The translations under genes and the position numbers were made by a program. The notes under the pieces were generated by a model. It was given only the letters and a program-made list of their open reading frames with translations. It was not told where the DNA came from and made no database searches. Shown piece by piece: positions 2,231-35,239 of a DNA stretch of 38,605 nt. Origin of the DNA: Patescibacteria group bacterium (GTDB lineage Bacteria > Patescibacteriota > UBA1384 > 2-12-FULL-50-11); assembly GCA_041477655.1 (NCBI GenBank), contig JBGOUP010000002.1, positions 1 to 38,605 of the forward strand, given 5' to 3'. Numbering within the stretch: the stretch's first letter is position 1; the number at the start of each line of letters is the position of its first letter.

Positions 2231-2253
2231 GCTCTAATCTCTTATGCCTGTGC

Positions 2254-2409
2254 CTTAGCGTGCTAGGGGGTGGGAGTGCAAGGATGAGAAGCGAATACTT
2301 GGAGCTTCGAACGGAAGCCGCAAAAAATGCCAAAATATTTCTGGGGCATTTTATTGCGGCGAGCGGGGGCGGGCTTCAAGACTCCGATCCCCATACCCTC
2401 TGCAAAAAG
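2254..2409 (+). repeat. structured intergenic element, copy A
   Basis: Starts CTTAGCGTGCTAGGGGGTGGGAGTGCA. Has a hairpin GAAGC/GCTTC, then GAACGGAAG, then a 15-bp hairpin GCCGCAAAAAATGCC/GGCATTTTaTTGCGGC. Ends GATCCCCATACCCTCTGCAAAAAG. Homologous to the copies at 10726, 11636, 19086 and 35081. Confidence 0.7.
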
Positions 2410-2436
2410 TTTTTTAATTAAAAAAATAAATATAAT

Positions 2437-7987: not shown

Positions 7988-8971
7988 ATGGAATCAGATC
8001 GAGACAAGAGCAACCAAGCCCAAATTACAATCCGTCGAGCCATTAGAGATTTTTTACGCGACGTCCAGGCTAGTCGTGGTTGGTCGATCTATACTTTACG
8101 TAACTACTCTCACGCCCTCGATGTTTTTTTAGCCTGGGCCAACGAGTTAAAACTTAAATACCTAAAAAGCCTGGGGCGCGACGATATCGTCGAGTTTCAG
8201 CTTCACCTGCAAAAGAGACAACAGCCAATCAGCCAAAAAACTATTAATTACTATTTAATCGCCCTGCGGAGCCTCTTGAAATACTGGACAAACGAAGACC
8301 TTGACGTTCTGGCGCCAGAGAAGGTTCGTTTAGCCAAGACCAGCCAGCGACAAATCCATTTTTTAGAGTCCGACGAGCTAGAAAAATTACTTGAGGCCAT
8401 TCCCACCAATAGTCTATCGGGAATACGTGACCGAGCCATCGTGGCCGTTCTGATCGCCACTGGGCTACGAGTCAGCGAACTGACTCAACTAAAACGAAGC
8501 CAGGTTAGTCTAAAGACCGGCGAGTTTAGTATCAGAGGCAAGGGCGGCAAGGTCCGGCCGGTTTTTCTAACCGATGTCGCCAAAACGGCCCTGGGCGACT
8601 ATATCACCACCAGACAAGACACCAACCCCTTCATTTTTATCCGTCATTACCAAAACCCCAAACTCGACAACAAAATAAAACGACCTTTAAGCGACCGGGC
8701 CATTCAGCGACTTGTCCGAAGCTTGGCCGCTCGAGCCGGCATTGTTAAACCAATCTCACCTCACAAACTTCGTCATAGTTTTGCCACTGATTTACTCCGA
8801 AACGGGGCGGATTTGCGCTCGGTTCAAGAGTTGCTTGGCCATGCCTCGGTGAATACTACCCAAGTCTACACCCATGTTACCAATCAAGCCCTGAAAGCTA
8901 CCCATCAACGTGTTCACTCTCACAATCGTCCCAAAGACGACCAGCCACTTGATCAAGACAGCCAAACATAG
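7988..8971 (+). CDS. tyrosine recombinase, XerC/XerD-like
   Basis: C-terminal catalytic box HKLRHSFATDLLRNGADLRSVQELLGHASVNTTQVYTHV and ATGLRVSEL (the Arg of RHRY). Confidence 0.85.
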   Translation: MESDRDKSNQAQITIRRAIRDFLRDVQASRGWSIYTLRNYSHALDVFLAWANELKLKYLKSLGRDDIVEFQLHLQKRQQPISQKTINYYLIALRSLLKYWTNEDLDVLAPEKVRLAKTSQRQIHFLESDELEKLLEAIPTNSLSGIRDRAIVAVLIATGLRVSELTQLKRSQVSLKTGEFSIRGKGGKVRPVFLTDVAKTALGDYITTRQDTNPFIFIRHYQNPKLDNKIKRPLSDRAIQRLVRSLAARAGIVKPISPHKLRHSFATDLLRNGADLRSVQELLGHASVNTTQVYTHVTNQALKATHQRVHSHNRPKDDQPLDQDSQT

Positions 8972-8986
8972 TACACTATTGACCAT

Positions 8987-9334
8987 ATGGACAAACACCC
9001 AGACCACCAGCGCTATCTTCTAACTTGTCTCTCGGCCAAAGCCGAGACGCTGGATGAGTTGGTTAAACTATTAGAAACTCGCCAAGCCGTTATTAAGAAA
9101 TCCGAGAACCTCGGCTCTCGTTCGCTGGCTTTCAAAATTAACAAACATGCCGAGCTTCAGCTGATGTCGGTTTTCTTCGAGACCCAACCCATTAACCTGC
9201 CTCCAATTCAAGAAGAACTAAAACATGCCCCTGGCGTGGAACGATTTTTGCTGACCACTTGGAACGCCGATTTTGAACGTCCGGTCCGTAAAAAGCGTGA
9301 GCTGACGACCCCAGCTGTGGCCAAACTCATCTAA
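8987..9334 (+). CDS. rpsF: 30S ribosomal protein S6
   Basis: Sits in the classic rpsF-ssb-rpsR order. LGSRSLAFKINKHAELQLMSVFFE matches the S6 core pattern. The TAATG junction overlaps the ssb start. Confidence 0.75.
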   Translation: MDKHPDHQRYLLTCLSAKAETLDELVKLLETRQAVIKKSENLGSRSLAFKINKHAELQLMSVFFETQPINLPPIQEELKHAPGVERFLLTTWNADFERPVRKKRELTTPAVAKLI

Positions 9335-9813
9335 TGTTTAGTCTTAATCGCGCCCAAATCCTTGGTAACCTGACCCGCGATCCCGAGGTCAAAACTTTGC
9401 CTAGCGGCCAGACTGTTACCTCTTTTGCTGTAGCCACCAATCGCCGCTGGAAAGATAAGGACGGCAATACCAAAGAAGACACCCAGTATCATGAAATCAC
9501 CGTTTGGGGTCGTTTGGGCGAGCTAGCTTCCCAGATGTTAAGTAAAGGAAAAAAAGTTTATGTTGAGGGTCGCTTGCAGACCAACTCTTGGGAAGGTAGT
9601 GACGGAGCTAAACGGAGTCGAACGGAAATTATCGGTGAAAGTTTTATCCCCCTCTCGCCTAAAGATGGAACCGGTTTTGAGATGAGGGACAAATCCATTC
9701 CCAAGGAACAAGATATACCAAAAACCGATCAGTCAACCGACACCAAGAGCGACAAAAAAACCCAGACGACCGAAACAGCCGAAGAAATTAATTTGGATGA
9801 CATCCCGTTCTAA
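9334..9813 (+). CDS. ssb: single-stranded DNA-binding protein
   Basis: OB-fold N-terminus LNRAQILGNLTRDPEVKTLPSGQTVTSFAVATNRRW, a disordered tail, and the acidic tip DDIPF. Confidence 0.9.
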   Translation: MFSLNRAQILGNLTRDPEVKTLPSGQTVTSFAVATNRRWKDKDGNTKEDTQYHEITVWGRLGELASQMLSKGKKVYVEGRLQTNSWEGSDGAKRSRTEIIGESFIPLSPKDGTGFEMRDKSIPKEQDIPKTDQSTDTKSDKKTQTTETAEEINLDDIPF

Positions 9814-9821
9814 AATGACAT

Positions 9822-9916
9822 GCACGAAATCCGAAGCACGAAATCCTAAACGTTTTGAATTTGAAGTTTTGGGTTTTGAGTTTGTTTCGAATTTAGAGCT
9901 TAGAATTTCGAATTTA
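9822..9916. repeat. CGAAAT-type low-complexity inverted-repeat spacer
   Basis: GCACGAAATCC occurs twice, followed by the palindrome AAACGTTT (9848-9855), then TTTCGAATTT and AATTTCGAATTT. This fills the ssb-rpsR spacer. Confidence 0.6.
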
Positions 9917-9924
9917 ATTCTACT

Positions 9925-10134
9925 ATGAAGCGTCGAGTTGATTGCTACTTTTCTAAAAACCAGATCAAAGAGATTGATTATCGAGCCACCGATTTATTGG
10001 GTCGCTATCTCACCAGCTGGGGCAAAATCAAAGCCGCCCGGGAAACTGGCACCTGCGCCAAACACCAACGAGCTTTGGCCCAAGCCATCAAACGGGCTCG
10101 CTATCTTGGTCTGATCTCCTACGTTAAGCGTTAA
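9925..10134 (+). CDS. rpsR: 30S ribosomal protein S18
   Basis: IDYRATDLLGRYLTSWGKIKAARETGTCAKHQRALAQAIKRARYLGL is a typical S18 sequence. Confidence 0.9.
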   Translation: MKRRVDCYFSKNQIKEIDYRATDLLGRYLTSWGKIKAARETGTCAKHQRALAQAIKRARYLGLISYVKR

Positions 10135-10139
10135 GGCCA

Positions 10140-10691
10140 ATGTTGCCGCTTGGCCAGGTGAAAATCGGCAGCAAAGTGCTGATTAAAAATAAGCCCTACG
10201 AAATTGTTGAGTTTAAACATACCCAGATGGGCCGCGGTGGGGCCAAACTAACGACCAAACTGCGAAATTTGATTGACGGGTCACTTGAGGAGCAGACATT
10301 TCAGGGCAATGAACAGTTGGAAGAGGCAAATATCGACTACAAAAACGCTCAATTTCTCTACGCCCAAGGCCCAACCGCTCATTTTATGCTTAGCGATAGC
10401 TTCGAACAGGTCAGCCACCGCCTGCCCGAACGCCGCTTGAAACTGATGAGTGAAGATATGCCGGTGACCTTGATGTTTTGGCAAAACAACATTATTGATA
10501 TTCAATTGCCTAAAAAAATCCGGGTTGCTATTCAATACACCGAGCCAGCCACCAAGGGTAATACCGTTACCGCCGCCTCCAAGCCAGCTCAACTGGAAAG
10601 CGGCCTGACTATTCAAGTGCCGTTGTTTATCAATACGGGAGATAAAGTTTGGGTTAATACTGAAACTGGTAGCTACGACAGTAGAGTTTGA
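10140..10691 (+). CDS. efp: elongation factor P
   Basis: KIGSKVLIKNKPYEIVEFKHTQMGRGGAKLTTKLRNL (KOW-like domain I), with length and a C-terminal OB domain typical of EF-P. Confidence 0.9.
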   Translation: MLPLGQVKIGSKVLIKNKPYEIVEFKHTQMGRGGAKLTTKLRNLIDGSLEEQTFQGNEQLEEANIDYKNAQFLYAQGPTAHFMLSDSFEQVSHRLPERRLKLMSEDMPVTLMFWQNNIIDIQLPKKIRVAIQYTEPATKGNTVTAASKPAQLESGLTIQVPLFINTGDKVWVNTETGSYDSRV

Positions 10692-10725
10692 TAACTCTAA
10701 TTATTAATAATATATTTTTATAATA

Positions 10726-10837
10726 TTTTTGTAGGGACGGGGGATTCAGAGTTTAGAAGCCCATCCCCCATCCCTACAACCCACCCCCTGGCACATCCAG
10801 ATAGGGAAGAACCAGGTCCTCTCCCTAGCACGCTCGG
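10726..10837 (-). repeat. structured intergenic element, copy B
   Basis: The minus-strand read begins CCGAGCGTGCTAGGGAG and contains CCAGGGGGTGGG. It ends in the hairpin GTAGGGATGGGGGA/TCCCCCGTCCCTAC followed by AAAAAT. Confidence 0.65.
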
Positions 10838-10902
10838 ACAAAAGAAACCGACAAAAAGCACGAAATTTTCGATCATTTTTATAAAGAAATTGGGGTGAGT
10901 GA

Positions 10903-11559
10903 TCACCCCAGAATATCTAACAGTGACTGGTCGATTTTGTAACCGACCGGTAGGACCAAACTTTCTGGGTCACGGCCGTTCCAGTGGATCTGGCCATTTA
11001 CAACCAAATTAAGGATGCGGGGGTAGAAATAACGCTCAATGCCCTTGACCCTGTCCTGAAGATGTTCGGCCCTTTCGTGGTTCTCCAGCAGAATTCTCAA
11101 CCGGAAAATGACCGGCCCATCGTCGTAATTGGCGGTAACGAAATGGGTAGTTAGCTCGGTGTAATCTGATCCAGCTTCTAAAACCGCCCGGTAGACATGA
11201 ATACCGTACATTCCCTTGCCGCCAAACTCGGGCAATGGCCCAGGATGGGAATTGATGGTTCGGCCGGGATCCATTTGGCTAAACGGTCGAAGCCAACCGG
11301 CTGATACCGCCCATTCTGCCTGGTATTTGGCCATAATTTCCTGGTAGGGCCGCTGATCAGTTCTGGGCTCAAAATGCTCAAAATTGATCCCGAGTTTCGA
11401 AGCGTGATCAAAAACACTGCCGTGAACGTGATTGCTAATCACCGCCACAATCTTGGCCTCAAGAATATTTTGTCTTGAAGCCTCTACCAAAGAACGAAAC
11501 AAACTTCCCCCGGATGTGGCAGTACCGGAGGCAAAGACGACGATATTCTCCACTGCCAA
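10903..11559 (-). CDS. formyltransferase, PurN-like catalytic domain only
   Basis: IVVFASGTATSGGSL, NSHPGPLPEFGGKG (the HxSLLP-type motif) and HFVTANYDDGPVI (catalytic Asp region). At 218 aa it has no Fmt-type C-terminal domain. Confidence 0.7.
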   Translation of the reverse strand: MAVENIVVFASGTATSGGSLFRSLVEASRQNILEAKIVAVISNHVHGSVFDHASKLGINFEHFEPRTDQRPYQEIMAKYQAEWAVSAGWLRPFSQMDPGRTINSHPGPLPEFGGKGMYGIHVYRAVLEAGSDYTELTTHFVTANYDDGPVIFRLRILLENHERAEHLQDRVKGIERYFYPRILNLVVNGQIHWNGRDPESLVLPVGYKIDQSLLDILG

Positions 11560-11635
11560 CCTCCTGATAGGTATAACTTAGATATACATTAATTTAAGTC
11601 GAGATCAATTCAAGGAGACCCTACGAGTCTCTGCT

Positions 11636-11788
11636 CTTTGAGAGGGTATGGGGATCTTACTTGGAAGCGGTCCCCTACCCTGCCGACCCCTCGCTCGGCA
11701 CTACAAAATGGCGGGAGATATTTTGCCATTTTTCGTGCCTTCCGTTCGAAAAGTCTCCCAGACTTTTCTCACACCTAGCACGCTAAGA
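11636..11788 (-). repeat. structured intergenic element, copy C
   Basis: The minus-strand read runs CTTAGCGTGCTAGG, hairpin GAAAAGTCT/AGACTTTTC, GAACGGAAG, hairpin GGCAC..AAAATGGC/GCCATTTT..GTGCC, GAGCG, GGGGACCGCTTCCAAGTAAGATCCCCATACCCTCT. Confidence 0.7.
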
Positions 11789-11801
11789 CAGAAACATGAG
11801 G

Positions 11802-11849
11802 TCACGGAGCGGTTTCTTGGAGGCTAAAGACGTTGTTGCGGGCGTTGAT
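11802..11849 (-). pseudogene. orphan 3'-terminal relic (15 codons + stop) of the giant pilus-associated gene
   Basis: The minus-strand translation is INARNNVFSLQETAP*, versus VNARNNVFSLQETSP* at the true C-terminus (19446-19493). The 26-nt core 11823-11848 is identical to 19467-19492. Confidence 0.75.
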
Positions 11850-11875
11850 CCCCAGTTTTGGAAAATTATCAATAC

Positions 11876-11905
11876 TTGACAGCAATTAGTCTTTTAAGCT
11901 ATTTT
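11876..11905 (+). promoter_or_regulatory. candidate sigma70 promoter of the RHS gene
   Basis: TTGACA (11876-11881), an 18-nt spacer, then TATTTT (11900-11905). AGGAG lies 7 nt upstream of ATG 11935. Confidence 0.35.
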
Positions 11906-11934
11906 TCAGTCAATGGTTATATTAGGAGTGGGCG

Positions 11935-14900
11935 ATGCAAGATAAAGCATCGATTATTAACCGCCTGAAATCATCCTTTGTTTATTTGTCGGTGCTTTCG
12001 CTTTTGGTGCAATCGGCACCATTTTTTATTTCTCCCGCTCGAGCCACTGAAAGTGTCGGTGATCAGTCAAAGCTGGATCAAGCTACTTATCTAAACGGAG
12101 CGGTTGAGAAGCCAGAAAAAAGAACTGCTCACTCAAAAAGCTTTGAAACATCCGATGGCAAAGGCTGGGCGGAAGTACATCAAGAGACAATCAACTACCA
12201 GGACGGCCAGGGCAACTGGCAGCCCGTTAACAATAACTTGGCAACGATTTCTGATCCAAATTATGCCTATGGCAATACCGCCAATCGTTACGCTGCTCAT
12301 TTTAAAAGCACTCTGGCAAGCGATTTCTTTGCTCTTCAGCAAGGCAGTGATCAAATTAGTTTTAGTCTACAAGGAGGTTCGTCTGTTCAAGGAACCATTT
12401 CCGGTACCACCATCATCTACCCCAATGCCCTTGCTGGCATAGACTTTGTTTACTCGACCGATTCCGATAGCGTAAAAAGCCAGTTGGTTCTCAATAGCGA
12501 ACCAACCAGTAGAATTGTTAATTACCAAGCAACACTTTCATCGGGGTTGCAGTTATCGACCGACTCCTTTGGGAATATTAAAGTGACCAATGGCTCAGGT
12601 ACAACGATCTGGACACTACCAAAACCATCAACTATCCAACCAATCACTCATGAACCGATTTTTACCAACTATTCATCTACTTCGCTCGGTTCTAATCAGT
12701 ACCAAATCGGCTTCACTATTCCTGATAATTTTTTGCCGGTGCCTGAAAAGGGCTATCCAGTAGTAATCGATCCCTCAATTGTTCTTGTAGACAGCTCTAA
12801 CACCGCCAGCAATTATGTCCTTCAAGGTGATCCGACTATTACGTATAAAAGCAGTTCAAATAACAATACCATACCCGTTGGTCATACTACTCTAGACGAA
12901 GCCCGAGCCTTCATGAAGTTTGATACCAGTAGTATCCCGGCCAATTCTTCGATAGATAGCTCTGTCTTCTCTATAACTATGCAGGAGGAACGAGCATCAA
13001 TTCCCAGAATCAAACTCTATAGTGTTACTCAAGACTGGAATCAGGATGACCTTAACTGGAATAATCAGCCGAGCGTCGCTTCAACCTTTGAGGATAGTTA
13101 CGCTAACGATGTTACCTATTCTTGGTGGAACTTTGATGTTACCAACCTAACTAAAGGCTGGTATTCCGGCTCAACTCCTAATTATGGATTTTCACTTCGC
13201 GGCCATGACCCTGGTGTTTCTCGCCGCTATTTCTTTTCCAAATACTACAGTAGCGACCCAAATAGAAAGTTTAACCCTTACGTTTTAATTTACTACCATC
13301 CGAACAGTGGCCAAGGCCCAACGCCTCCTCAGATGCTTGGAACAAAACCTTGGTGGCAAACAGTTAATAGTCCATTGGCGGTAGGTAATGCTTCAGTTAA
13401 TGTGGCCAATGGTAACTTAGCCTTCAATTTCAACGACGTGTCTGTCCAGGATCAAGGGCTCGATGTCTCGGTCAGCCACACCTACAATAGCCAAGACACT
13501 TATAACGATAAATTCGGTTACGGCTGGACAACTTCAGCCAACAAACGCCTAGTCCCCTCTCAAGACCGGAAAACCGTCTTGTACGTTGACGAGACTGGGA
13601 CCAGCTTCACCTTTAGAGATGACGACGGTAATGGCAACTACCTAGACACGCCGTACGATGCTTCTAGCGGTTTTTATAAACAGACCGATCATCGCCCAAA
13701 TGGTCTGACTTGGGGTCTGAAATACGACTCGGGCGCCGATCATTACATCGCCAAATCAAGTTCCAATATGACCTATACCTTCGATGGAAGTGGAAAAATA
13801 CTGGAAGAAAAGGACAAAAACGCCAATAAGGTTACTTATCAATACACCAGTGGCAAATTGACTGGAGTCGTTGGTAATTCCGGAAAGACCGTTAGCCTAG
13901 CTTACGACAGCAACGGTATGCTGGCCAGCGTTAAGGATTACAATGACGGCGATTCCCAATACAGCGGCAACGGTGGTATTGTTTCCTATCTCTACGACAA
14001 TGGCGATCTTAAAACCCTTAAATTCCAGCAAGAAGGCCAAAGCAATCCATTTGCTACCCTAACCTTCAACTACACCAATCATCGCCTAGATTCGATTGTC
14101 GACGCTCTCAATAACACCACTAGTTTTACTTACGATGGTAGTAAAAGAGTGACGGATATTTATGACGCCGAAAACAAACACACCAAGATTGACTACACTT
14201 CTGCCGGCCTAACCAAAGTAACCACGCCCAAATACTTCGTCGATGGTGGCGACCAAGAGAAATATATGACTGATTACTACTACCGTACGAACCCCTACTA
14301 TCAGACTGGGTTAGTTTATAGGCAGATTAGTCCGAAACTGACCAACAATCAAAATCAAACCGTTCGCAATATTACCGAGTATGACTACAACGACGACTAT
14401 CAGTTACATGCAACCACGGATCCAATTGGGGCGGTTGACGCTTCGGCATATGATGACGTATCAGGCTTCCTCTTCTACCAATATGACGAAAATCACACTT
14501 TGACCCTTGAGAAAAGTTACACTCTTTCAAATTACGACCAGGGTGATTGGCGTCTTGTTGATAGCTATGATGGCAACGGAACTCAAACAAGCTATCAATA
14601 CGACACCAACGGCAATGTCATTTACAAAGGGATTCTTGATGGCAACATTAATTTAATCCACAATCCCGGCTATGAGAGCAATGTCAGGGATCCGAATGTT
14701 TTTGACCCCAACTGCAGCTACGTAAAGCAGGGGTTAGCCGACTTTTGGTGCGGTACGGGGACTGGATCTAATAACAGAATCTACGGGGTTGACACTGGCA
14801 CTTTCAACGATGGCTCTAAATCGCAGTATGTCGGGTTCAATAACAACACAAGTAGCGGTTCGGTTAATGCTTTCCAGACAATTAATGAAGCTACCCGCCC

Positions 14901-17900
14901 GCTCCCAGACACTGACTATGTTCTGACTTGGAATTATAAAAACGACATTAGCAGTAACTTCTACGTTCAAATTGCCATTATTCATTACGATACTTGGGGC
15001 AACCAAATTGGCTCAACGATCCTTGACTCGAATCATTACTCGTCGTCGGCTTGGGATCAAAAATCGTTTAGTTTTCATACTCCTGCAACTAACTCATCTA
15101 CAGGTTATCCGTACTGGACATCAGACATATTTATGCGAGCCAAAAGTGACACCACAGGAACAAATGCTAAGGCCTGGTTTGATTCGGTCAGTTTAGAACG
15201 AGGTACTACCTCAAGTACCAGAACTGAAAAAGCAATCACCTTTACTTATACCGACGCTCTTCATTCTACGCCAACTGGCTTGCCACTTACAGAAACAACC
15301 CCTGAAGGCAAAACCGCTCATTACGATTGGGACAGTCGGGGTAATATGCTGAAAACAACTGACGCCTTAAATAAATCTACCACCTTTACATATGATGCAA
15401 ATGGCAACAAATTAACGAAGGTTGAGCCAAACGGCAATGATACTCTACTTGATCCGGACGACTACAAATATGCCTATGTCTATGACACGCGTGGTCGAAT
15501 TATCTTGGTTAAGGAAGTAAAAACTAACAACCAGACTACCTATCAATATGATGCTAACGGGAATTTGATCCAAACAACTACTCCTAATGGGCTGATTACT
15601 AAATACACTTACGATAAGGTCAACCGAGCTAAAACAATTATCAACCCATATGATTATTCAAGTAACGTTGAATATGATGCTCAAGGTAATCCGAAGGGCA
15701 TAGTCGATCCCAACTCTAACGCAAGTAGCGTTGCATACGATGGGGCTGACAGGATCGTTCAAGAAACCAACCCTGGCGGTCAGGCCACAAATTACAGCTA
15801 CGATGACAACAACAACCTCAAGAAAACTGACGAAAATGGTAAAACTTTACAGTATAACTATGACTCTACAGGCAAGTTAACTTCAGAAACTAACAATCAG
15901 CTTGGTAGTGATAAGACCATACAGTACCAATACGACAATGCCGGTAATCTAACAGTAATCAACAATCAAACCGGGGAAACCGTTAACCACACTTATTCTG
16001 CGACTGGCGAGGTAACTAAAGTAACTATCGGTGCCCAAACGACTATCTACACTCGAAATAAAAATAATCAAGTTACTAAAATTGAAAAATCTAACGGAGA
16101 CATTACCGAGTATTCATATAACGATGATGCCCAATTTGCTCATATTAAGAACTCCCGAAACAACACCCCATATCTGGAATATGATTATGGGTATGACGCT
16201 AACGGCAACAGAACTCGAATTACGACGGTCACTAATGGCAACTCGTCGGAAACTGGTTATCAATACGATAATATCAACCAGTTGACCCAAAGTGCAGTTG
16301 TTGGTGGCCTAACTACAAACTATACATACGACAACGCTGGTAACATTACACATGTAGCAATATCGACTGGCTCTTGGACTAATTACACGTACGACGGCAA
16401 TCGACTAATTAAAAAAACCACCTCGGCCGGATCAACGGAATATATTGGTTATGATGCCTCGGGTAACTTGACCAGTCGAGATACGGCAGACAAAGTTGAT
16501 TTTCTGTCTCACTTCAATAACAATCTAATCAACGCCCGAGACAATCAAGCTGGCAAAATTGAGAATTCGACTCAAGGTTATACACCTGTGTACGAAACCG
16601 GCAAGTTTAACCAAGCGCTTCAGCTTAATTCCCAAACTTATATTAGCTTTTCCTCTTCCAGTAATATTAATCCCAATACAGGCACTGTTGAGATGTGGGT
16701 TAAGCCTCATTGGAACAATGGTTCGAGCACCAGAGTTTTCTTTGATTATTACGTAGATACGAATAGTATCATCCGACTTCAGAAGACTTCTACTAATAAG
16801 CTACAGCTGTTCTACATTAGAAGTGGCGCTAATTATACGGCCACCAGTAACTCAAGCGTAACCTGGACAAACGGCACTTGGATGCATTTGGCGGCTACTT
16901 GGAATAGTACTACGGCTAAACTTTACGTTAATGGGCAAAATCTTTCATCAACCAACAGCACTTATTTTTGTGATCCTAATCTGCCATGCGATCCTCCATG
17001 GGGCGGCCGATCGCCAAAAATTGGTTTTGGTGCCACAACCGAAACCAACCCTTCTAATTACGCTGATGTTAGTTTAGACGAAGCTCGCTTATCGTCCTAC
17101 GTCCGCACCAGCTCTGAAATCTCCAGCTCTTACAATGCCACCAGCGAGTTTACCTTGCCTCACACCACTACTTACGAGTACGACTCCCACGATTACCTAA
17201 CCAAAATCACAAAACCCGACGGAACAGTTTTCGGCTATACCTATGATGCGAATAAGCGGCTAACAAAGAGAACTAAAACAAGTGCTAGCGACATCAACTA
17301 TCAGTACGATGGTGATAAATTAACTCAAGAAACTAACAACGACGGATCAATTATCAATAAATACTATTATGATTCTCAGGGGGAGATACTAAAGGTGACT
17401 CATGGCTCGAGTGATTACTTCCTAACGAGGGATGGATTAGGTGGGAGCATCTCACTTCGCGATGGCAACGGCAACAGTGCTAGTAGCTACGTATATGACG
17501 ATTGGGGTAAGCTGGTCAGCAAAACCGAACAATTTTCTATGCCCGTTCGTTATGCTAGCTATTGGTATGACGATGATGCTGGACTCTACCATATGGGAGC
17601 TCGCTGGTACGATCCTAGCATCTACAGATTCCTTAGCGAAGATCCAGACCCCGGTGATCAGAATGATTCTATCACCCAGAATGAATATGTCTACGCAAGA
17701 AATAATCCGATCAGATATACTGATCCCAATGGGAAGTTTGCATGGGCATTTACCTTGGCCGCTAATCCAGAGGTCACTGCTTTTGTTTTACTAGCGTATG
17801 CAGTGATATTACTTGCTAATAATAGCGGTATTAAGAATAGAATTGCTGGGCAATTAGGCCATATTCAGGAACACTTGGGTAAGATCAGGGATAAAGCCGG

Positions 17901-18033
17901 CCAGGTTACCCGTAACACAATTAGGGCATGGAAAAAGGAAATAGAGGTCGCAGAAAGAAGGATCAGAGAGCTTCAAAGACAATTAAATAAGAACAAAAAA
18001 CCTGGTAAGCCTTGGAAGAAAAAGGGAAGATAA
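11935..18033 (+). CDS. secreted RHS/YD-repeat polymorphic toxin (2032 aa)
   Basis: Sec-type signal ending ...SPARA/TES. A DNRLRE-like module (SVTQDWNQDDLNWNNQPS). Many YD repeats (YxYDxxGNL/YDANGN). A CBM4_9-like insert (~aa 900-1090). A LamG-like insert (WMHLAATW...LYVNGQ...LDEARLSSYVRTSSEI). An RHS core ending GARWYDPSIYRFLSEDP...NEYVYARNNPIRYTDPNG, followed by a 99-aa variable tail. Confidence 0.9.
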   Translation: MQDKASIINRLKSSFVYLSVLSLLVQSAPFFISPARATESVGDQSKLDQATYLNGAVEKPEKRTAHSKSFETSDGKGWAEVHQETINYQDGQGNWQPVNNNLATISDPNYAYGNTANRYAAHFKSTLASDFFALQQGSDQISFSLQGGSSVQGTISGTTIIYPNALAGIDFVYSTDSDSVKSQLVLNSEPTSRIVNYQATLSSGLQLSTDSFGNIKVTNGSGTTIWTLPKPSTIQPITHEPIFTNYSSTSLGSNQYQIGFTIPDNFLPVPEKGYPVVIDPSIVLVDSSNTASNYVLQGDPTITYKSSSNNNTIPVGHTTLDEARAFMKFDTSSIPANSSIDSSVFSITMQEERASIPRIKLYSVTQDWNQDDLNWNNQPSVASTFEDSYANDVTYSWWNFDVTNLTKGWYSGSTPNYGFSLRGHDPGVSRRYFFSKYYSSDPNRKFNPYVLIYYHPNSGQGPTPPQMLGTKPWWQTVNSPLAVGNASVNVANGNLAFNFNDVSVQDQGLDVSVSHTYNSQDTYNDKFGYGWTTSANKRLVPSQDRKTVLYVDETGTSFTFRDDDGNGNYLDTPYDASSGFYKQTDHRPNGLTWGLKYDSGADHYIAKSSSNMTYTFDGSGKILEEKDKNANKVTYQYTSGKLTGVVGNSGKTVSLAYDSNGMLASVKDYNDGDSQYSGNGGIVSYLYDNGDLKTLKFQQEGQSNPFATLTFNYTNHRLDSIVDALNNTTSFTYDGSKRVTDIYDAENKHTKIDYTSAGLTKVTTPKYFVDGGDQEKYMTDYYYRTNPYYQTGLVYRQISPKLTNNQNQTVRNITEYDYNDDYQLHATTDPIGAVDASAYDDVSGFLFYQYDENHTLTLEKSYTLSNYDQGDWRLVDSYDGNGTQTSYQYDTNGNVIYKGILDGNINLIHNPGYESNVRDPNVFDPNCSYVKQGLADFWCGTGTGSNNRIYGVDTGTFNDGSKSQYVGFNNNTSSGSVNAFQTINEATRPLPDTDYVLTWNYKNDISSNFYVQIAIIHYDTWGNQIGSTILDSNHYSSSAWDQKSFSFHTPATNSSTGYPYWTSDIFMRAKSDTTGTNAKAWFDSVSLERGTTSSTRTEKAITFTYTDALHSTPTGLPLTETTPEGKTAHYDWDSRGNMLKTTDALNKSTTFTYDANGNKLTKVEPNGNDTLLDPDDYKYAYVYDTRGRIILVKEVKTNNQTTYQYDANGNLIQTTTPNGLITKYTYDKVNRAKTIINPYDYSSNVEYDAQGNPKGIVDPNSNASSVAYDGADRIVQETNPGGQATNYSYDDNNNLKKTDENGKTLQYNYDSTGKLTSETNNQLGSDKTIQYQYDNAGNLTVINNQTGETVNHTYSATGEVTKVTIGAQTTIYTRNKNNQVTKIEKSNGDITEYSYNDDAQFAHIKNSRNNTPYLEYDYGYDANGNRTRITTVTNGNSSETGYQYDNINQLTQSAVVGGLTTNYTYDNAGNITHVAISTGSWTNYTYDGNRLIKKTTSAGSTEYIGYDASGNLTSRDTADKVDFLSHFNNNLINARDNQAGKIENSTQGYTPVYETGKFNQALQLNSQTYISFSSSSNINPNTGTVEMWVKPHWNNGSSTRVFFDYYVDTNSIIRLQKTSTNKLQLFYIRSGANYTATSNSSVTWTNGTWMHLAATWNSTTAKLYVNGQNLSSTNSTYFCDPNLPCDPPWGGRSPKIGFGATTETNPSNYADVSLDEARLSSYVRTSSEISSSYNATSEFTLPHTTTYEYDSHDYLTKITKPDGTVFGYTYDANKRLTKRTKTSASDINYQYDGDKLTQETNNDGSIINKYYYDSQGEILKVTHGSSDYFLTRDGLGGSISLRDGNGNSASSYVYDDWGKLVSKTEQFSMPVRYASYWYDDDAGLYHMGARWYDPSIYRFLSEDPDPGDQNDSITQNEYVYARNNPIRYTDPNGKFAWAFTLAANPEVTAFVLLAYAVILLANNSGIKNRIAGQLGHIQEHLGKIRDKAGQVTRNTIRAWKKEIEVAERRIRELQRQLNKNKKPGKPWKKKGR

Positions 18034-18377
18034 TGATTAAAAGTACAAGGAAAGATATTCAAAAGACCCTTGAAATGGTTAGTAGCTTCGAGGGAAAGTT
18101 TAAAGAAATTAGCTTAAAACACTCAAAAAGCGAGATTCTATCAAAATCTACGCTGGCGGCCGATCTAGCAGACATACAAGAGGCGGCTTTCGCAATCTCT
18201 GACCTAGTCGATAGATTGGATGAATTATTATTGACTCATAAAAATATGGCGGGAAAAGCATTGATTGATTTGACTATACAATTAGACCATATTCAGTATC
18301 ATTACAAAGAAGGCAAAAGAGATATGGAAACTCTGGCTGACCTGCTTTACGAAAAGGCAAAAAGCGACAAATCTTAG
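18033..18377 (+). CDS. small helical protein, immunity candidate for the RHS C-terminal module
   Basis: ATG 18033 overlaps the RHS stop (TAATG). It encodes a 114-aa all-helical acidic protein with no TM and no family I recognise. Position immediately 3' of an RHS toxin is the classical immunity slot. Confidence 0.5.
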   Translation: MIKSTRKDIQKTLEMVSSFEGKFKEISLKHSKSEILSKSTLAADLADIQEAAFAISDLVDRLDELLLTHKNMAGKALIDLTIQLDHIQYHYKEGKRDMETLADLLYEKAKSDKS

Positions 18378-18499
18378 GAAAGCCATTTTTTCCCTAAAAT
18401 ACCTAACTGGTAACTTGTACTACTCCAACTGGCGAATATATTGAGGATTCTAGGAAAATTTTGACAACGTATAAAATATACTATTCAGGGGAATTGTAG

Positions 18500-19084
18500 A
18501 TGACATCAAAGGAAATATCCGAGAAGTATAATAAAGGGCTTGAACACTATAAGAATAGAGATTACAAAAAAGCCCTAAAGGAATATAAAGATATTGTTAA
18601 GTTAGATCCTAATTTTAGCGATGCCGTTAATGATATCGGGCTTTGTTATTTACATCTCAAGAAATACCCTTTGGCATTAGGATACTTTGAGAAAGCAACA
18701 AGTTTAGAGCCTGAAAATTGGGTTCCTCAATCGAATATTGCAATGGCGCTTGTTGGTCAGAAAAGAAATTCAAAGGCTATACCATTTTTCCAGAAGGCGC
18801 TCAAACTGGGTGGCGATGAAGATGTGCTGTTTAATACCGCGGTTAATTTTTATGTATTAGCGGCGAAAGAACACTTAGATGACAATACTAAACAAGCCCA
18901 TCGCTATATAGACAAAGCTATTAAGCTTTATCCCAAGGATGCTGACTTCTTTGTGTTAAGGGGTGACTTGCTAAGTGATCAGAATGAGGGAGAAGCTGCC
19001 TTATATAGTTATCTGAAAGCAAAAGAGCTGGGTGATAGGTCCAAGGCTCTATCCAATAAAATCAATAAGCTCAAAGATAAATGA
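18500..19084 (+). CDS. tetratricopeptide (TPR) repeat protein
   Basis: Repeated 34-aa pattern, for example YKKALKEYKDIVKLDPNFSDAVNDIGLCYLHLKKYPLALGYFEKATSLEPEN. The gene is AT-rich. Confidence 0.8.
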   Translation: MTSKEISEKYNKGLEHYKNRDYKKALKEYKDIVKLDPNFSDAVNDIGLCYLHLKKYPLALGYFEKATSLEPENWVPQSNIAMALVGQKRNSKAIPFFQKALKLGGDEDVLFNTAVNFYVLAAKEHLDDNTKQAHRYIDKAIKLYPKDADFFVLRGDLLSDQNEGEAALYSYLKAKELGDRSKALSNKINKLKDK

Positions 19085-19085
19085 A

Positions 19086-19197
19086 TCTCCCTGGGCTCCC
19101 GCCCAGGGAATCTTCTTCTTCGCTCCGCGCCATCTTGCTTGGAAAAGCGGCGGGGGCTCTCATCCACTGGCTTCCGCCCGTGGTATCCTCGCTAAGA
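19086..19197 (-). repeat. structured intergenic element, copy E (divergent)
   Basis: The minus-strand read runs CTTAGCGAGG..., CGGAAG, CGCTTTTCCAAGCAAGAT, then the terminal hairpin TCCCTGGGC/GCCCAGGGA (19088-19109). It shares CCAAG(T/C)AAGAT with copy C. Confidence 0.45.
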
Positions 19198-19445
19198 ATA
19201 AAAAGTAACGTTGGTTGGACTTTTTGTAAAGAAGATTACACCAATGACTCCAGAGAGGAAACGGTCAAGTCCGCTATTAATTTCTCTAAGAAGCTTGAAA
19301 GGCATTGGAGCTAACAAGAAAACGCTTAGTAAAACTGCCGGAACTTCAGCGGGTATAGTTGATATAAAAGTAGCGTTTCAGCCATATCAGCGTTACTCAT
19401 CAAACCTATGTATGATCGAAGGTGCGGAGGTCATTCAGCATGGAT

Positions 19446-22400
19446 CTACGGTGACGTTTCTTGCAAGCTAAAGACGTTGTTGCGGGCGTTGACGATGAAG
19501 GCTCGGCGGACCCCGCCGTAGTAGCCAATTACCCGGTAGGTGTCGGTCTGGCCTAATGTCTGACTAGCGCTCAAGGTAAAAGCCAAATCTTCTGGGTCGG
19601 GCAACCAGTCGAGCAGGTATTTTTTATTGCTGGTGTCACACGAGCCATCAACCTTGTAGGAGCCACAGTAACTAAAGCCTCGGGCGGGATCATCGAGCGT
19701 GGTTCGGCCAGGTTGATAGACCAATGCCGCGCCAATGCCCATAGTTGTCACCAGTATCGATCCCCCGTTGTCTAAACGACTAAAGCCAGCCAGCATAGTA
19801 GTTTTATCCGAAGTCAAAGCCGGATCGTCGGTGATGTTGTTAGGATAATAACCTTCTTGCTCGGATCGACCGATGGTTGAGGCAAATGATCGCGACGGCC
19901 CAGACAGAATCATGCTGGGGCTATCGCCGGTTTTACGCCAAGCCGAGCCTGGGTTAATAACACCGAGGCTGGCTCCAGCTGTATAGCCAGAAATATCACT
20001 TTTGTCTTGGCTGGATCTTCCCATACTTCCCAAATGCCGCAATTGCTGGCCGTCGCAGGCTTGAGGACCGACGGATGGCTGGCCGACATAGGTACAGGTT
20101 TTGTCGATAGATGAGCGGGTAATTTTGAAACTATCTCGGTCTGTTGTTCCCGAAGGCAAGGCGTCATAGGCGCCGTCAATCATTCGCCTGCCGTCGAGCG
20201 TCGAGCTGCCATTATCAGCTAATGTAAATGTCTCACTGCCAGACGAGCTGGTTTCCGGCGTGCCCAGAATTCGCGGGCCAAAAACAGTCGCGTTATCAAA
20301 ATCGTGACCGTCAAATCGCTGTTTGCCACCAAAGTAGACGGCTTTGGTTACAACATTGCCGCCGATATTCTCTTGATAAACATCGAGGCCACCACCAAAC
20401 AGATTAGGCAAATCGCCACTTTGGTTTAAGCCAGACTGATTAAGTGCCCAGCCTGCCTCGTTCGCTCCCGACTTACCGGCGTTGGTCTCTTTCCAAAAAC
20501 TGCCGTCAGTACCGTAGGTAGCGCCGGTCAAAAACAAACTTGAGCTGGCGCTACTGCCACTGCCGGTGGTTATAATCGCCCCGGCACCGTCCTGGCGTGG
20601 TGCCGGTCGGTCTTTAACATTAACACTATTGTCTTTGCCACTGGCTCGAATGGCCCAGGAAATTGCCGTATTCGAGTTGGCCAATCCGCTGGTCACGTCA
20701 GTCTGCCACTCCAAAGCTCCAGCCTTATATGGGTCGAAACCGCCACCGTTCATGTAAAGTTGGTAGTTGCTCAACATTAATGACCGAACGGTTGTGCCGT
20801 CACTGACCAGACCACCAGCTAATCCAGCTAAGGATAACGGTGAAGAAATGAGTTTGGTATTGAGCTGGAGACGGACGTCACTACCGATGGTTCGGGAACT
20901 AATCTTTCCAATATAGAACTGACCAGATTCATAGCCGGCTAAAACAATCGCTCCGCGAGGTATTTGGTTAAGATCGCTAGAATTGGGCGACTTACCTAGA
21001 ACTTCAGCCGAACCATTGGTCGATAAACTAACACCCGACATGGTTTTGTTGAGCTCGCCAACATAGGCCAACGTTACCTTGGCATTTTTACTATCACCTG
21101 ACAGGCCAGTATCGCCAGGATAAGTCGAATCATGTCTAAGCACGACCTGAATTAACGAACCCGGGTGGCTTAGCCCAGCCACATTGCCATGAAAAACCTC
21201 GAAGGTATCGGCCTGTTGTCGCTCAATCGAGATCCTGGCGCCAACGGCCAGGTATTGGGAGGCGGCGTCGCTATCGGGAAAATTAACAGTCCAGCTACCG
21301 TCGCTTGGCCAACTGCCATCTGTTGGCGTTAGACCCGAGTTGTTAGCCGAAGCATCGGTAAAAATAGTGGCACTGGGCGGGAAATTTAGGACTTGCAAAC
21401 TTAACGATCCACCGGGTTTAGCGGGCGAGCTTAAGGGTAGTAGTCGCCAGGTGACTTGAGTCGAAGGGACGCTTGGCAGGTCTAGCACCCAAGTCGTAGC
21501 TGGCCGATAGGCCGAAGAATCCATCTGTTGACTACCGCCGTTAACGACCAAGTGGGAGACCCCATCTGAAGTCGTCGAAACTCGGGCGTTGGCTCCAGAC
21601 GCGGGCAAAGGAATTTTCAGGGCAGATCCTGAAGTATAATTGGTGGTGAAGTCGTTGCTACTGTCTTTCTCTTTACTGGTAAAGTAGAAGATGTTGTTGG
21701 TAATGGCCGAAACGTAACCAAATAATTCACTGTCAATTTGGTCAAAGTTAGACGGGTACTTATCCAGAGTCACTGCGTCGCCAACAGCTAAACCTTCACT
21801 CCCCGTTGTCATAACACATCCGTTGCCAGCACCGACGCAAACCAGCTCACTGTTCTGACGTTGGATCGGCTGAATACTTAAACTTTTAAGAGTGACGTTT
21901 GGGCCACCTCCATAACCAGAGATAGTGACAGTAATGATATTGTCGTTACCGTTAATGGCCGTAATTGATCCCCAGGCTCGAAACTCATTACCCGCCTGGG
22001 TTATTCCAGACAGGTAGACCTTGTCGCCTTGAGCAAACCCAGCCGCACTGCGGTAAATGGTGAAGCTGTTGGTGTCCCCGGGTGAGGTATTGATGGTTAT
22101 AGTAGCAGGGGCGGGGGGAAAATTAACCTGGGCGTTCCACTGCCATCCGGGCTTACCAGAACGATCGGCCAGGCTAGATTGAACGCGGAGAGTGTACTGA
22201 TCGCCGTTGGTAATTTTTTGAGACGCGTCAGCATTGATAACTGCTTTTTTCCAGGATTTGGCGTTTAAATCATAGAAATAGACGTCGTTACTAAAACGTT
22301 GAGCTAACCGGAAGTTGACCCGGTTGTAAGCCAAACAGAGCCTTTGGGTGGCATCAAGACAGTTACGACCGCCAGGTGAGGATCCTTCATTGCCTTGGGC

Positions 22401-24377
22401 TTCGTTGTAACTTCCGCCGTACAAGACCAGCCGGTGGTTCTGTTCATCCAAGGCCAGACTGGACCCATAAAGTGAGTTAGGCACGTCACTGGCATTACCG
22501 CCGCTGATTGGCACGTTGGCCACGAACTGCCAGGCATTTACCGACGGTGTGTAGTACAAAAGTTCGTCTAGCTGGGAGTAGAGACCGCCATCGTAGGAAT
22601 TGCTATCAATCCTGCCGCCAAACAGAGCGATTTTTTTGGTGCCGTCAGTGTCGGTAAAGGCGGTGTGGGCGAAATCCCTGACCGGCTTGGGGTAAGAACG
22701 AAAACTATCCACGGAAAAACCGGTGACGCTTGTTCCGGACACGTCAACTCGATCAACCACTCCCCACAGCCTAGTACTGCCTTTAGTCAAACCAACGATA
22801 TCGCCCAAGGCTGGACAAGCTACGTAGGTATAGGGGCTGGAGGTTTGATGGGGACAAGATTTTTCGCTGACGACATTGACAACGGCGTCCTTAGCGCCGT
22901 TGTTTCCCGACAAGGTGACGCTGGAGAAGGACTGTTTGGTGGAGAACTGGGGATCGCTAACTAAGCCGACCGCCCCTAACTCGCTGGACGGCACATAGCC
23001 GCCGCCAGGATCTTTTTTCTGGGGAGTGTCAGTGGCGTCAGCGCTCAATGTCAAAACCACTGTCGAGTTGCTGCCGTTAGTGGCGATAGATTTAACGGTA
23101 ACATTATAGAGCTTGCCTTGATCGTCGGTCCGGCCACTTAATCGGCCGTAGGTCTGATTATTTTTATCCAGCAGTTGTAGCGCGACAGTTCCGTTGATCC
23201 TCAAACCTTCCAGCGATCCGTAGAGAAGCATAGTCACGTCGTGGCCAGCCTGAAATGTGACTTGGTTTTGTCCGGATTGGCCAAAAGTGAAGAAGCTAAA
23301 GGGCCTGGCGCCACGGAGGATATCCACGTCCCAGCCGCTATCGTTGGTTAGCGAGTCGAGGTTAGGCAAGGCTTGCTTCTGCCAGGTGGCGTCGCCAGCA
23401 ACATCGCCGGAAACATAGGGACCGTTGAGGGAGCTCTCGGGCAAATCGTTCCAAAGTGTCGGTTGCGCCCAAGTCAGCCGGTTGGTAGGACTGGCTACAA
23501 ACAGGTCACCCAAGCCATATTGGTAGAGAACGTCATCGGTCATCGAGGCATCTAGCCAAACTTTCAAATTATTACTAGTGATGACGCCCTCGAATTTACT
23601 TCGAAGATTTCCGGCCGAGATAGTCCCGAAACTGCCGTTGTCCAAAATCGTCCCGGAATCAACAAAACGAGGCAAGTAGGGGATATAAAGCAAGTCTAAT
23701 CCCTGGTAGAGAGAGTGAACGCCGTCCGAGGCTTTTTTGCTCAAGAATTCGTCTTGAGGGCCGTTATATTTAATCGTCCAATAGCTTTCTTCGGTTGGGT
23801 TACTGCCAACTGGCGCGTAAGGATTATAGAAATGGCCCATTTGAGTCAGCGAACTGACTGTCTGGGCGACATCAGGGCTGTTGCCAGGAATATCTTTGAG
23901 CCGAGTATCATTAACGATGTTGGCAATTTGGAAAATCATGGCTGGGTTGCTAGTTGAGTCCTGACTATATAAGTAACCGCCAGTGCTAACCCAAGGTGAC
24001 AGTACCCCAACCGACAGACAGCGGGGCAAGCGGGTTGTATCAGGTTCAACTGTGTAAAGTGTCGAGCGAGGGCTGGGTTTATAAGTAGAAATGTCGCTGA
24101 TTGGGCCGGTTGGAAGATTCTTGTCCAGGTCATAGCCCTTGATAGCGTCAATCGAAGAACCGCTCTTGAGCGTGTTCTCTAAGTCGGTCACGCCGCTTTT
24201 GGCCGCCAGTTCGGCCACACTCGATGAGCCAATCCGATCAGTTGCCGACAACTGCTGATAACGCAGAGCCGCCCCGCCCAAGGCCATGCTGGTAATAATG
24301 GCCACGACCATAATAGTCAGAAGCAGGGCCGAACCCGGACGGCGGACCATAAACGAAGCCATCGGCCGATTGGTCAT
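19446..24377 (-). CDS. giant (1643 aa) pilus-associated protein with GspK/PilX-like N-terminal anchor
   Basis: The N-terminus MVRRPGSALLLTIMVVAIITSMALGGAAL is a pseudopilin-like hydrophobic segment without Glu5, as in GspK/PilX. It is the last gene of the minor-pilin operon, with an ATGA overlap to the upstream pilin. A Kelch-like stretch is present (LFGGRIDSNSYDGG...LVLYGGSYN...YFYDLNAKSWKK). Confidence 0.7.
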   Translation of the reverse strand: MTNRPMASFMVRRPGSALLLTIMVVAIITSMALGGAALRYQQLSATDRIGSSSVAELAAKSGVTDLENTLKSGSSIDAIKGYDLDKNLPTGPISDISTYKPSPRSTLYTVEPDTTRLPRCLSVGVLSPWVSTGGYLYSQDSTSNPAMIFQIANIVNDTRLKDIPGNSPDVAQTVSSLTQMGHFYNPYAPVGSNPTEESYWTIKYNGPQDEFLSKKASDGVHSLYQGLDLLYIPYLPRFVDSGTILDNGSFGTISAGNLRSKFEGVITSNNLKVWLDASMTDDVLYQYGLGDLFVASPTNRLTWAQPTLWNDLPESSLNGPYVSGDVAGDATWQKQALPNLDSLTNDSGWDVDILRGARPFSFFTFGQSGQNQVTFQAGHDVTMLLYGSLEGLRINGTVALQLLDKNNQTYGRLSGRTDDQGKLYNVTVKSIATNGSNSTVVLTLSADATDTPQKKDPGGGYVPSSELGAVGLVSDPQFSTKQSFSSVTLSGNNGAKDAVVNVVSEKSCPHQTSSPYTYVACPALGDIVGLTKGSTRLWGVVDRVDVSGTSVTGFSVDSFRSYPKPVRDFAHTAFTDTDGTKKIALFGGRIDSNSYDGGLYSQLDELLYYTPSVNAWQFVANVPISGGNASDVPNSLYGSSLALDEQNHRLVLYGGSYNEAQGNEGSSPGGRNCLDATQRLCLAYNRVNFRLAQRFSNDVYFYDLNAKSWKKAVINADASQKITNGDQYTLRVQSSLADRSGKPGWQWNAQVNFPPAPATITINTSPGDTNSFTIYRSAAGFAQGDKVYLSGITQAGNEFRAWGSITAINGNDNIITVTISGYGGGPNVTLKSLSIQPIQRQNSELVCVGAGNGCVMTTGSEGLAVGDAVTLDKYPSNFDQIDSELFGYVSAITNNIFYFTSKEKDSSNDFTTNYTSGSALKIPLPASGANARVSTTSDGVSHLVVNGGSQQMDSSAYRPATTWVLDLPSVPSTQVTWRLLPLSSPAKPGGSLSLQVLNFPPSATIFTDASANNSGLTPTDGSWPSDGSWTVNFPDSDAASQYLAVGARISIERQQADTFEVFHGNVAGLSHPGSLIQVVLRHDSTYPGDTGLSGDSKNAKVTLAYVGELNKTMSGVSLSTNGSAEVLGKSPNSSDLNQIPRGAIVLAGYESGQFYIGKISSRTIGSDVRLQLNTKLISSPLSLAGLAGGLVSDGTTVRSLMLSNYQLYMNGGGFDPYKAGALEWQTDVTSGLANSNTAISWAIRASGKDNSVNVKDRPAPRQDGAGAIITTGSGSSASSSLFLTGATYGTDGSFWKETNAGKSGANEAGWALNQSGLNQSGDLPNLFGGGLDVYQENIGGNVVTKAVYFGGKQRFDGHDFDNATVFGPRILGTPETSSSGSETFTLADNGSSTLDGRRMIDGAYDALPSGTTDRDSFKITRSSIDKTCTYVGQPSVGPQACDGQQLRHLGSMGRSSQDKSDISGYTAGASLGVINPGSAWRKTGDSPSMILSGPSRSFASTIGRSEQEGYYPNNITDDPALTSDKTTMLAGFSRLDNGGSILVTTMGIGAALVYQPGRTTLDDPARGFSYCGSYKVDGSCDTSNKKYLLDWLPDPEDLAFTLSASQTLGQTDTYRVIGYYGGVRRAFIVNARNNVFSLQETSP

Positions 24378-35025: not shown

Positions 35026-35080
35026 AGCAAAAACATATACTCCTTATAAACTTGCCGCAATGCCTACGAAGTTTGTTTGC

Positions 35081-35200
35081 CTGAGCGTGCTAGGGGGTGG
35101 GAGTGCAGAAGGTAGGGGGACCGCTTCGTGGATTCAACCAGCTCACCACCCTGAGTACAATCGAAGGGCAGTAGATCCCCCTACCTTCTGCAAAAGAAAA
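35081..35200 (+). repeat. structured intergenic element, copy D
   Basis: CTGAGCGTGCTAGGGGGTGGGAGTGCA includes a 24-mer identical to copy A. A perfect 16-bp hairpin GCAGAAGGTAGGGGGA (35105-35120) / TCCCCCTACCTTCTGC (35175-35190) follows, then CAAAAGAAAA. Confidence 0.7.
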
Positions 35201-35216: not shown

Positions 35217-35239
35217 TATCTTTTTCGCGGATGCGAAAT

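Follow-up and report, generated by a model that had tools for sequence, protein, structure and literature searches.

Why should the last codons of a very large gene be found twice, once in place and once, with no gene body attached, on the far side of a toxin gene cluster? The question is raised by contig JBGOUP010000002.1, the 38.6-kb stretch analysed here (the window, with all coordinates on the + strand unless stated), which comes from a Berkelbacteria-like Patescibacteria (Candidate Phyla Radiation, CPR) bacterium. Its giant 1643-aa gene closes a type IV pilus-like operon and is followed by a 7.6-kb RHS toxin island, beyond which lies a relic of the same 3' end. The preliminary description had counted by hand a 48-nt direct repeat, and this count holds: 11802-11849 and 19446-19493 agree at 40/48 positions, both are coding on the minus strand, and they are spaced 7644 nt apart with zero indels. 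Translated on that strand they read INARNNVFSLQETAP-stop and VNARNNVFSLQETSP-stop respectively, in frame and with stop aligned on stop. The perfect 26-nt core (11823-11848 = 19467-19492) was likewise recovered, and a search of the window gave these two occurrences only. The scar is real and statistically secure: blastn-short of the pair gives E = 5e-11, and the runner-up ungapped 48-mer match to the real tail, on either strand of the whole window, reaches 27/48. We consider it somewhat better than even that the RHS cassette was inserted horizontally into the end of the giant gene through short-homology recombination, which would make it an integrase-less variant of a genomic island with att-type flanking repeats.

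Homology had been described as ending abruptly on the gene-internal side. It does so on both sides, also when gaps are allowed: gapped blastn found zero homology past the 47-48 nt, flanking elements included. The I/V codon at the inner edge of the repeat is probably outside the homologous segment, which leaves an effective homology of 47 nt, and the 26-nt core adjoins the gene-internal end of it. Upstream of the relic the in-frame sequence contains stop codons and has zero similarity to the giant protein. All 27 full-length homologues of the giant protein end in …GYYGGVxRGYxV…QE[IT]xP-stop, and because this tail consensus is family-wide, the relic is unmistakably a giant-gene C-terminus. It agrees with the tail of its own gene at 13/15 aa and with that of the best homologue at 9/15 aa. 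A degenerate form of the tail, NARNNVFSLQET, had zero matches in the metagenome, genome and viral public collections.

The differences between the two tails are informative. Seven of the eight mismatches fall in the 21 nt adjoining the stop, where the core continues as LQETAP-stop in the relic and as LQETSP-stop in the real tail; the codon differences (relic/real tail) are CTC/TTG (Leu), ACC/ACG (Thr), GCT/TCA (Ala/Ser) and TGA/TAG (stop). The stop survives all seven substitutions, and one residue is altered; for random substitution in these 21 nt, retention of the stop with at most one altered residue has P ≈ 5e-4. This signature of purifying selection implies that both tails diverged as working gene ends in separate lineages, and the two were united by transfer after that divergence. 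In situ duplication followed by decay is thereby ruled out. The mismatches are also unevenly distributed, with 0/26 in the core vs 7/21 directly beside it (Fisher P = 0.0018). Since this perfect block, so close to a diverged one, lies where the homology ends, it is the likely crossover site, and the footprint is what would be expected of a crossover limited to the sole perfectly identical stretch. The core has no dyad symmetry, inverted repeat or dif-like half-sites; the longest local palindrome, with arms of 6 nt, lies outside it.

Relatives indicate which of the two copies is in place. Giant-gene loci were gathered by look-ups and two collection scans, which gave 16 distinct lineages, all with the giant gene and efp-S18-SSB-S6-Xer in convergent orientation; the efp block of the window, at 8-10.7 kb, is placed as in the relatives. 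The stop-to-stop distance between the giant gene and efp is 0-150 nt in 10/16 lineages, and inserts of 0.5-8.8 kb are present in 6/16, window included (Table 1). The inserts of these six lineages are accessory and mutually unrelated, and the giant/efp junction is a recurrent insertion hotspot in this clade. Each locus has a single giant gene, with no tandem giant genes in any relative. Read in giant-gene orientation, the window has the order giant gene, spacer, TPR gene, immunity gene, RHS gene, relic tail, element C, formyltransferase gene and efp. Because the giant stop adjoins efp in the relatives and the relic is on the efp side, the relic appears to occupy the ancestral position and the RHS cassette to be the newcomer. 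The window contains no relic of the efp tail.

The composition of the cassette is consistent with a foreign origin. Its AT-richness had been judged by eye; measured, the island has a GC content of 42.5%, whereas the remainder of the contig has 48.2% and the pilus operon 50.6%, and the lowest-GC 7.6-kb segment of the contig starts at 11801 and coincides with the repeat-bounded interval. RHS homologues of the same architecture (P0031-P0037, loci L031-L035; 44-63% identity) are found at other loci in relatives and, together with the GC minimum at the interval, mark the cassette as foreign; no giant-tail-like (attP-like) sequence was found at L031-L035. Pfam and NCBIfam searches of all island open reading frames (ORFs) returned RHS, a 114-aa ORF without match and TPR, in agreement with the earlier statement that the interval holds no integrase, and no transposase was found in the island. 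The island ends have no terminal inverted repeats and no common k-mers of at least 9 nt, and the repeat, which is 48 nt long and diverged, is not the short identical target-site duplication of a transposon or insertion sequence.

The cargo itself can be classified. The RHS protein has a signal peptide, a DNRLRE/CBM96 domain, DUF6531 and RHS repeats (RHS_repeat match E = 6e-62) with LamG inserted in the shell, and residues 1854-1933 match Rhs_assc_core (...RYTDPNGKF, DPxG motif). Its C-terminal tip of ~99 aa, which contains a hydrophobic segment and a coiled-coil tail of basic character, has no match among known toxin domains. Tip and 114-aa ORF do, however, have a homologue in L033/L034, an orphan module that lies downstream of an RHS gene, and this match identifies the cargo as a genuine polymorphic toxin-immunity cassette, with RHS/YD repeats, a core with DPxG motif, a variable tip and an adjoining small ORF. 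The orphan tip/immunity module of L033/L034 is part of an array of ~9 small ORFs downstream of the RHS gene. The RHS proteins form a small CPR-specific family defined by the signal peptide, DNRLRE/CBM96 and LamG in the RHS shell, and we know of no type VI secretion system in the organisms that carry it.

A second case was found in L007, a Berkelbacteria metagenome-assembled genome (MAG) whose giant protein is 35% identical to that of the window. Its real tail ends GTLPKVYEIVP-stop, and a copy ending GTLPKVNETVP-stop, identical at 30/36 nt, lies 3083 nt downstream on the same strand and in frame to the stop. The same contig has five relics of an efp 3' end (…VPLFIKTGDRIIVNTETGQYDSRA-stop), arranged as tandem direct repeats at 15257-21830, which retain 10, 24, 38, 38 and 49 codons; all end TETGQYDSRA-stop, and the last ~10 codons are common to all five. 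An intact efp is absent from the L007 contig, and the efp-tail pattern was not found in viral contigs. The efp relics delimit cassettes that encode DUF3800, NYN with a DUF5615/DUF433 pair, and three TrmB-type regulators, and no integrase is present in them. TrmB-type regulators recur as hotspot cargo, being found in L006 and three times in L007 (18011-22628). One efp relic is fused head-to-head to a tail relic of the giant gene. One L007 cassette starts with a giant-tail relic and ends with an efp-tail relic; it has the appearance of a donor's complete giant/efp intergenic cargo, cut inside both flanking tails. When the shortest efp relic, e5, is compared with its neighbour e4, a 29-nt exact block stands at the abrupt end of homology and the divergence is on the stop side. 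This is the pattern of the window's repeat pair, and the scar type is independently recurrent.

We propose that the segment at 11802-11849 would be the original 3' end of the giant gene, orphaned by the insertion. The incoming DNA, from another lineage of the same bacterial group, would have carried the last ~47 nt of a donor giant gene (core, LQETSP and stop) and the donor's downstream DNA, that is, spacer, TPR gene, immunity gene and the RHS toxin gene with its promoter. Once recombined with the resident gene at the perfectly identical 26-nt block, the incoming tail would complete the giant gene, whose last 21 nt (19446-19466) would have come with the cassette, and the resident tail would be moved 7.6 kb downstream, beside element C, the formyltransferase gene and efp. 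The enzymology would most likely be that of the host's homologous recombination, working from a minimal anchor, either by Campbell-type integration of a circle or by one-sided integration of competence-acquired DNA akin to homology-facilitated illegitimate recombination (HFIR); a dedicated integrase is less likely. The preliminary description had offered an insertion that regenerated the C-terminus and left an att-like duplication. The insertion gains support from synteny, the functional tails, the crossover in the core and L007; the site-specific integrase that the word 'att-like' implies does not.

Several points weigh against this proposal. We infer the direction of the event, the crossover in the core and the RecA/competence route from one genome, because neither junction is covered by a strain-level relative. 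For both, the evidence is a single metagenomic assembly, without coverage by an independent contig. Exact-protein look-ups of efp, the formyltransferase (two start choices) and the TPR protein found neither a strain-level empty site, in which the giant stop would be followed by element C and the formyltransferase gene, nor a donor, since no recorded strain-level relative spans the junction; they returned only short fragments that end before both junctions, namely the sibling contigs L004 and L005 (99.9% identical, window 8541-11201) and, from an independent assembly, L036 (99.9% identical over window 18315-19249, the TPR region). An anchor of 26 nt is at the lower limit for RecA-dependent recombination. 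Tail relics are absent from the inserts of L003, L006, L023 and L028 (4/6 insert lineages), so tail-anchored insertion is not the sole route into the hotspot. Finally, the Xer-type gene, 2.7-2.8 kb off in every relative, leaves room for a recombinase acting in trans.

The last point leads to an explanation that we regard as unlikely, if still deserving of weight: a site-specific integrative element without its own integrase, similar to cis-mobilizable elements (CIME) and mobilizable genomic islands (MGI) or to integrative mobile elements exploiting Xer (IMEX), with the 26-nt core as att core. The island's attP would mimic the 3' end of the gene, and a tyrosine recombinase, the neighbouring Xer-type enzyme or one encoded elsewhere, would act in trans. 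The geometry is that of classic 3'-end islands: the core is exact, the diverged distal arm is borne by the element, and towards the gene interior homology is lost abruptly; the conserved position of the Xer-type gene and the ~10 codons common to the five L007 efp relics, a possible common core, point the same way. However, neither the island nor any insert at the hotspot (~10 cassettes) contains an integrase, two unrelated repeats (giant tail and efp tail) were used with relic lengths that vary from 10 to 49 codons, and the core lacks symmetry or dif-like half-sites just as the island lacks terminal repeats or common k-mers at its ends. These observations speak for short-homology recombination instead. 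The Xer gene is there with or without cassettes, as expected of a housekeeping enzyme, and the tail pattern is on no viral contig. The identity blocks favour short-homology recombination as well. The minimum for RecA strand exchange is ~26 bp and the minimal efficient processing segment (MEPS) 25-35 bp (PMC6382021); uninterrupted identity at the homologous junctions is at least ~25 nt (26 nt in the window, 29 nt in L007 e5/e4) and so lies near this threshold. Natural competence and integration of homologous DNA have, moreover, been demonstrated in Patescibacteria (PMC10633639).

The tails differ like diverged functional alleles, an observation that would also fit a leftover of the replacement or deletion of the giant gene, or of a tandem paralogue, without any crossover in the core; the illegitimate end of that event would by chance lie 48 nt short of the old stop. 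Such an event needs no integrase, and the giant family evolves fast (nearest homologue 42%), which is compatible with frequent allele turnover. We nevertheless find it rather improbable, since a random illegitimate end is unlikely to leave 12-15 codons in two independent lineages, and since it does not explain 26/26 identity directly beside 14/21 (P = 0.002). This contrast of identities and the single giant gene of every relative likewise disfavour the second reading of the preliminary description, in which the relic was the last remnant of a deleted paralogous giant gene. An assembly artefact or chance similarity, finally, seems very improbable to us, even with a single metagenomic assembly in which neither junction is on an independent contig. 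Chance is excluded by the match statistics (40/48 vs 27/48, E = 5e-11) and by the preservation of frame and stop. A chimeric join at the 26-mer would set the body of the giant gene, not the RHS promoter region, beside the core, which makes mis-assembly unlikely; moreover, assemblies typically use k-mers longer than a 26-nt repeat, and the same scar type is found in the unrelated assembly L007.

Table 1. Features of the window around the RHS island, and inserts at the giant/efp junction in the six insert-bearing lineages (size in place of position).
Feature	Position or size	Strand	Remarks
Xer-type tyrosine recombinase	7988-8971	+	sole recombinase in window; 2.8 kb from relic; syntenic in all relatives
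efp	10140-10691	+	conserved convergent neighbour of giant gene in relatives
Formyltransferase (PurN-like) gene	10903-11559	-	co-directional with relic
Element C, repeated intergenic element family	11560-11801	-	directly downstream of relic's stop
Displaced (orphan) giant-gene 3' end, (I)NARNNVFSLQETAP-stop	11802-11849	-	in frame to stop, without gene body upstream
Exact 26-nt identity block, putative crossover/anchor	11823-11848 (= 19467-19492)	.	0/26 mismatches
Inserted 7.6-kb cassette	11850-19445	.	low GC 42.5%; not at this position in any relative
Promoter-like site TTGACA-18-TATTTT, upstream of RHS gene	11876-11905	+	consensus match only
RHS/YD polymorphic toxin, 2032 aa	11935-18033	+	domain profile matches
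Candidate immunity gene, 114 aa	18033-18377	+	ATG overlaps RHS stop (TAATG)
TPR protein, 194 aa	18500-19084	+	island's lowest GC at third codon positions (GC3, 0.35); codon usage unlike core genes
Terminator-like hairpin, bidirectional, after TPR gene	19087-19110	.	then 335-nt spacer 19111-19445, no identified content
Giant 1643-aa gene, last of type IV pilus-like operon	19446-24377	-	pilin-like N-terminal hydrophobic segment, Kelch-like beta-propeller
Working 3' end of giant gene, VNARNNVFSLQETSP-stop	19446-19493	-	fits family consensus ...QE[IT]xP-stop
Insert at giant/efp junction, window	8.8 kb
Insert at giant/efp junction, L003	3.5 kb		NUDIX, hydrolase, Ham1, HIT
Insert at giant/efp junction, L006	5.5 kb		methyltransferase, TrmB (TrmB-type regulator at L006 16183-17061)
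Insert at giant/efp junction, L007	>8 kb
Insert at giant/efp junction, L023	1 kb		MazE/PIN
Insert at giant/efp junction, L028	0.5 kb

The pilus-like operon encodes a T2SSF platform protein, four prepilin-like proteins and the giant protein, the N-terminal hydrophobic segment of which reads …RRPG/SALLLTIMVV…. It is a reasonable inference from these features that the giant protein is pilus-associated, possibly located at the tip. Its homologues, 33-42% identical, come from MAGs of Patescibacteria or Candidatus Berkelbacteria. On the other side of the island, the formyltransferase gene probably entered the giant gene/efp interval in an older insertion. The Xer-type enzyme matches the XerC, XerD and XerA models, the XerA match lying above its cut-off.

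Element C belongs to a family of intergenic elements with four copies in the window, at 2231-2436 (+), 10692-10902 (-), 11560-11801 (-) and 35040-35239 (+). A fifth copy, 'element copy E', had been placed in the spacer at 19085-19445, which is not detectably of the A-D family nor related to element C. Each element is ~130-170 nt long; the 5' motif (T)GAGCGTGCTAGG is conserved, the interior varies, and at the 3' side is a hairpin with arms that co-vary from copy to copy, e.g. GGTAGGGGGA/TCCCCCTACC vs GTAGGGATGGGGGAT/ATCCCCCGTCCCTAC. The family had no Rfam match even at E ≤ 1, and it could represent a lineage-specific small RNA, a terminator module or a repeat similar to repetitive extragenic palindromes (REP) or miniature inverted-repeat transposable elements (MITE). 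Element A adjoins a TrmB-type regulator gene (1487-2230, +), and copy B separates the formyltransferase gene from efp. Element D flanks a 214-aa ORF (34381-35025, -) without Pfam match that has 34% GC (GC3 0.34), the lowest of the contig; this ORF may be another foreign insertion.

Other repeats and a tRNA were seen elsewhere in the window. Two 64-nt AT-rich arms, at 9860-9923 between ssb and rpsR and at 36911-36974 upstream of groEL, form an inverted repeat pair with 78% complementarity and TTTCGAA/TTTCGGA-like units, and may be a common regulatory or promoter-region motif. A hairpin-plus-T-tract element, GGCGGGGTGGA…TCCACCCCGCCATTTTGTTT, is present in two copies (31122-31157 and 31811-31848) that bracket ~0.7 kb; beside this stretch is a Fic/DOC gene (31847-32233). 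ARAGORN gave a tRNA at 29859-29934 (-) a four-base 'anticodon' (atta) and left its identity undetermined; Rfam scored it as a normal tRNA (60 bits), and it adjoins a tRNA-Leu(CAG) at 29943-30017.

To our knowledge, little is known of how the ultra-small, host-dependent Patescibacteria acquire accessory genes, as recognizable mobile elements are few in them. The scar in the window and the efp-tail array of L007 offer a concrete, testable route, in which conserved gene ends act as landing pads and no element-encoded integrase is needed. A bolder reading, to which we give little credence at present, is that Berkelbacteria-like Patescibacteria have, at the convergent giant/efp junction, a locus dedicated to cassette accretion, with short copies of the 3' ends of the two flanking genes as recombination sites. 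If so, small integrase-less cassettes (toxin-immunity genes, toxin-antitoxin pairs, DUF3800, NYN, TrmB) would be captured there and shuffled between lineages. The locus would be the functional analogue of an integron or defence-island hotspot built on coding tails, and could be driven either by competence together with RecA acting on minimal anchors or by the conserved Xer-type enzyme next to it. Interest would be wider if Patescibacteria turned out to capture genes generally through tail-anchored arrays of the L007 type. In relatives, type IV pili serve in attachment to the host. The secreted RHS toxin-immunity pair directly adjoins the pilus operon, a relation that is here one of position alone, and is relevant to how epibionts compete or attack.

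The scar is not a new kind of system, and parts of it resemble several known ones. IMEX, which recombine at dif through XerCD, have repeats of ~28 bp built of two partly palindromic 11-bp arms and a 6-bp spacer; the window has a host Xer recombinase, and its repeat does not have this dif-like structure. Campbell-type single-crossover integration and HFIR are known from natural transformation in Acinetobacter, S. pneumoniae and P. stutzeri (cited in PMC6382021). The window is similar in its one-sided short homology, in the foreign segment added beside the anchor and in a host that is plausibly competent for DNA, whereas classical HFIR uses anchors of hundreds of bp and usually deletes recipient DNA; here the anchor would be 26-47 nt and is duplicated. 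Like the orphan C-terminal modules of Rhs and CdiA, the window shows a new 3' module acquired by recombination at a conserved stretch, with the former end staying downstream as a non-expressed relic. The displaced tail of the window is, in contrast, that of the neighbouring pilus gene and comprises 15 codons without a functional module.

L007 in turn resembles integron arrays and tandem island accretion, since its tandem integrase-less cassettes have the same short bounds and a tyrosine recombinase nearby. Its repeats are, however, the coding 3' ends of efp and the giant gene, not attC hairpins, and the Xer-type gene is conserved and split from the array by essential genes, with no evidence that links it to the cassettes. 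The closest parallel is with islands that use the 3' ends of tRNA, tmRNA or protein-coding genes and are flanked by att repeats. As in these, a direct repeat duplicates the 3' end and leaves the gene intact, an exact core is joined to a diverged distal arm, the cargo is an accessory toxin, and the island stands out by deviant composition and by its absence from relatives. Unlike them, it encodes no integrase, excisionase or other internal recombinase; its target is a pilus-associated giant gene of a CPR bacterium, and the same hotspot also uses the convergent efp tail in another lineage (L007).

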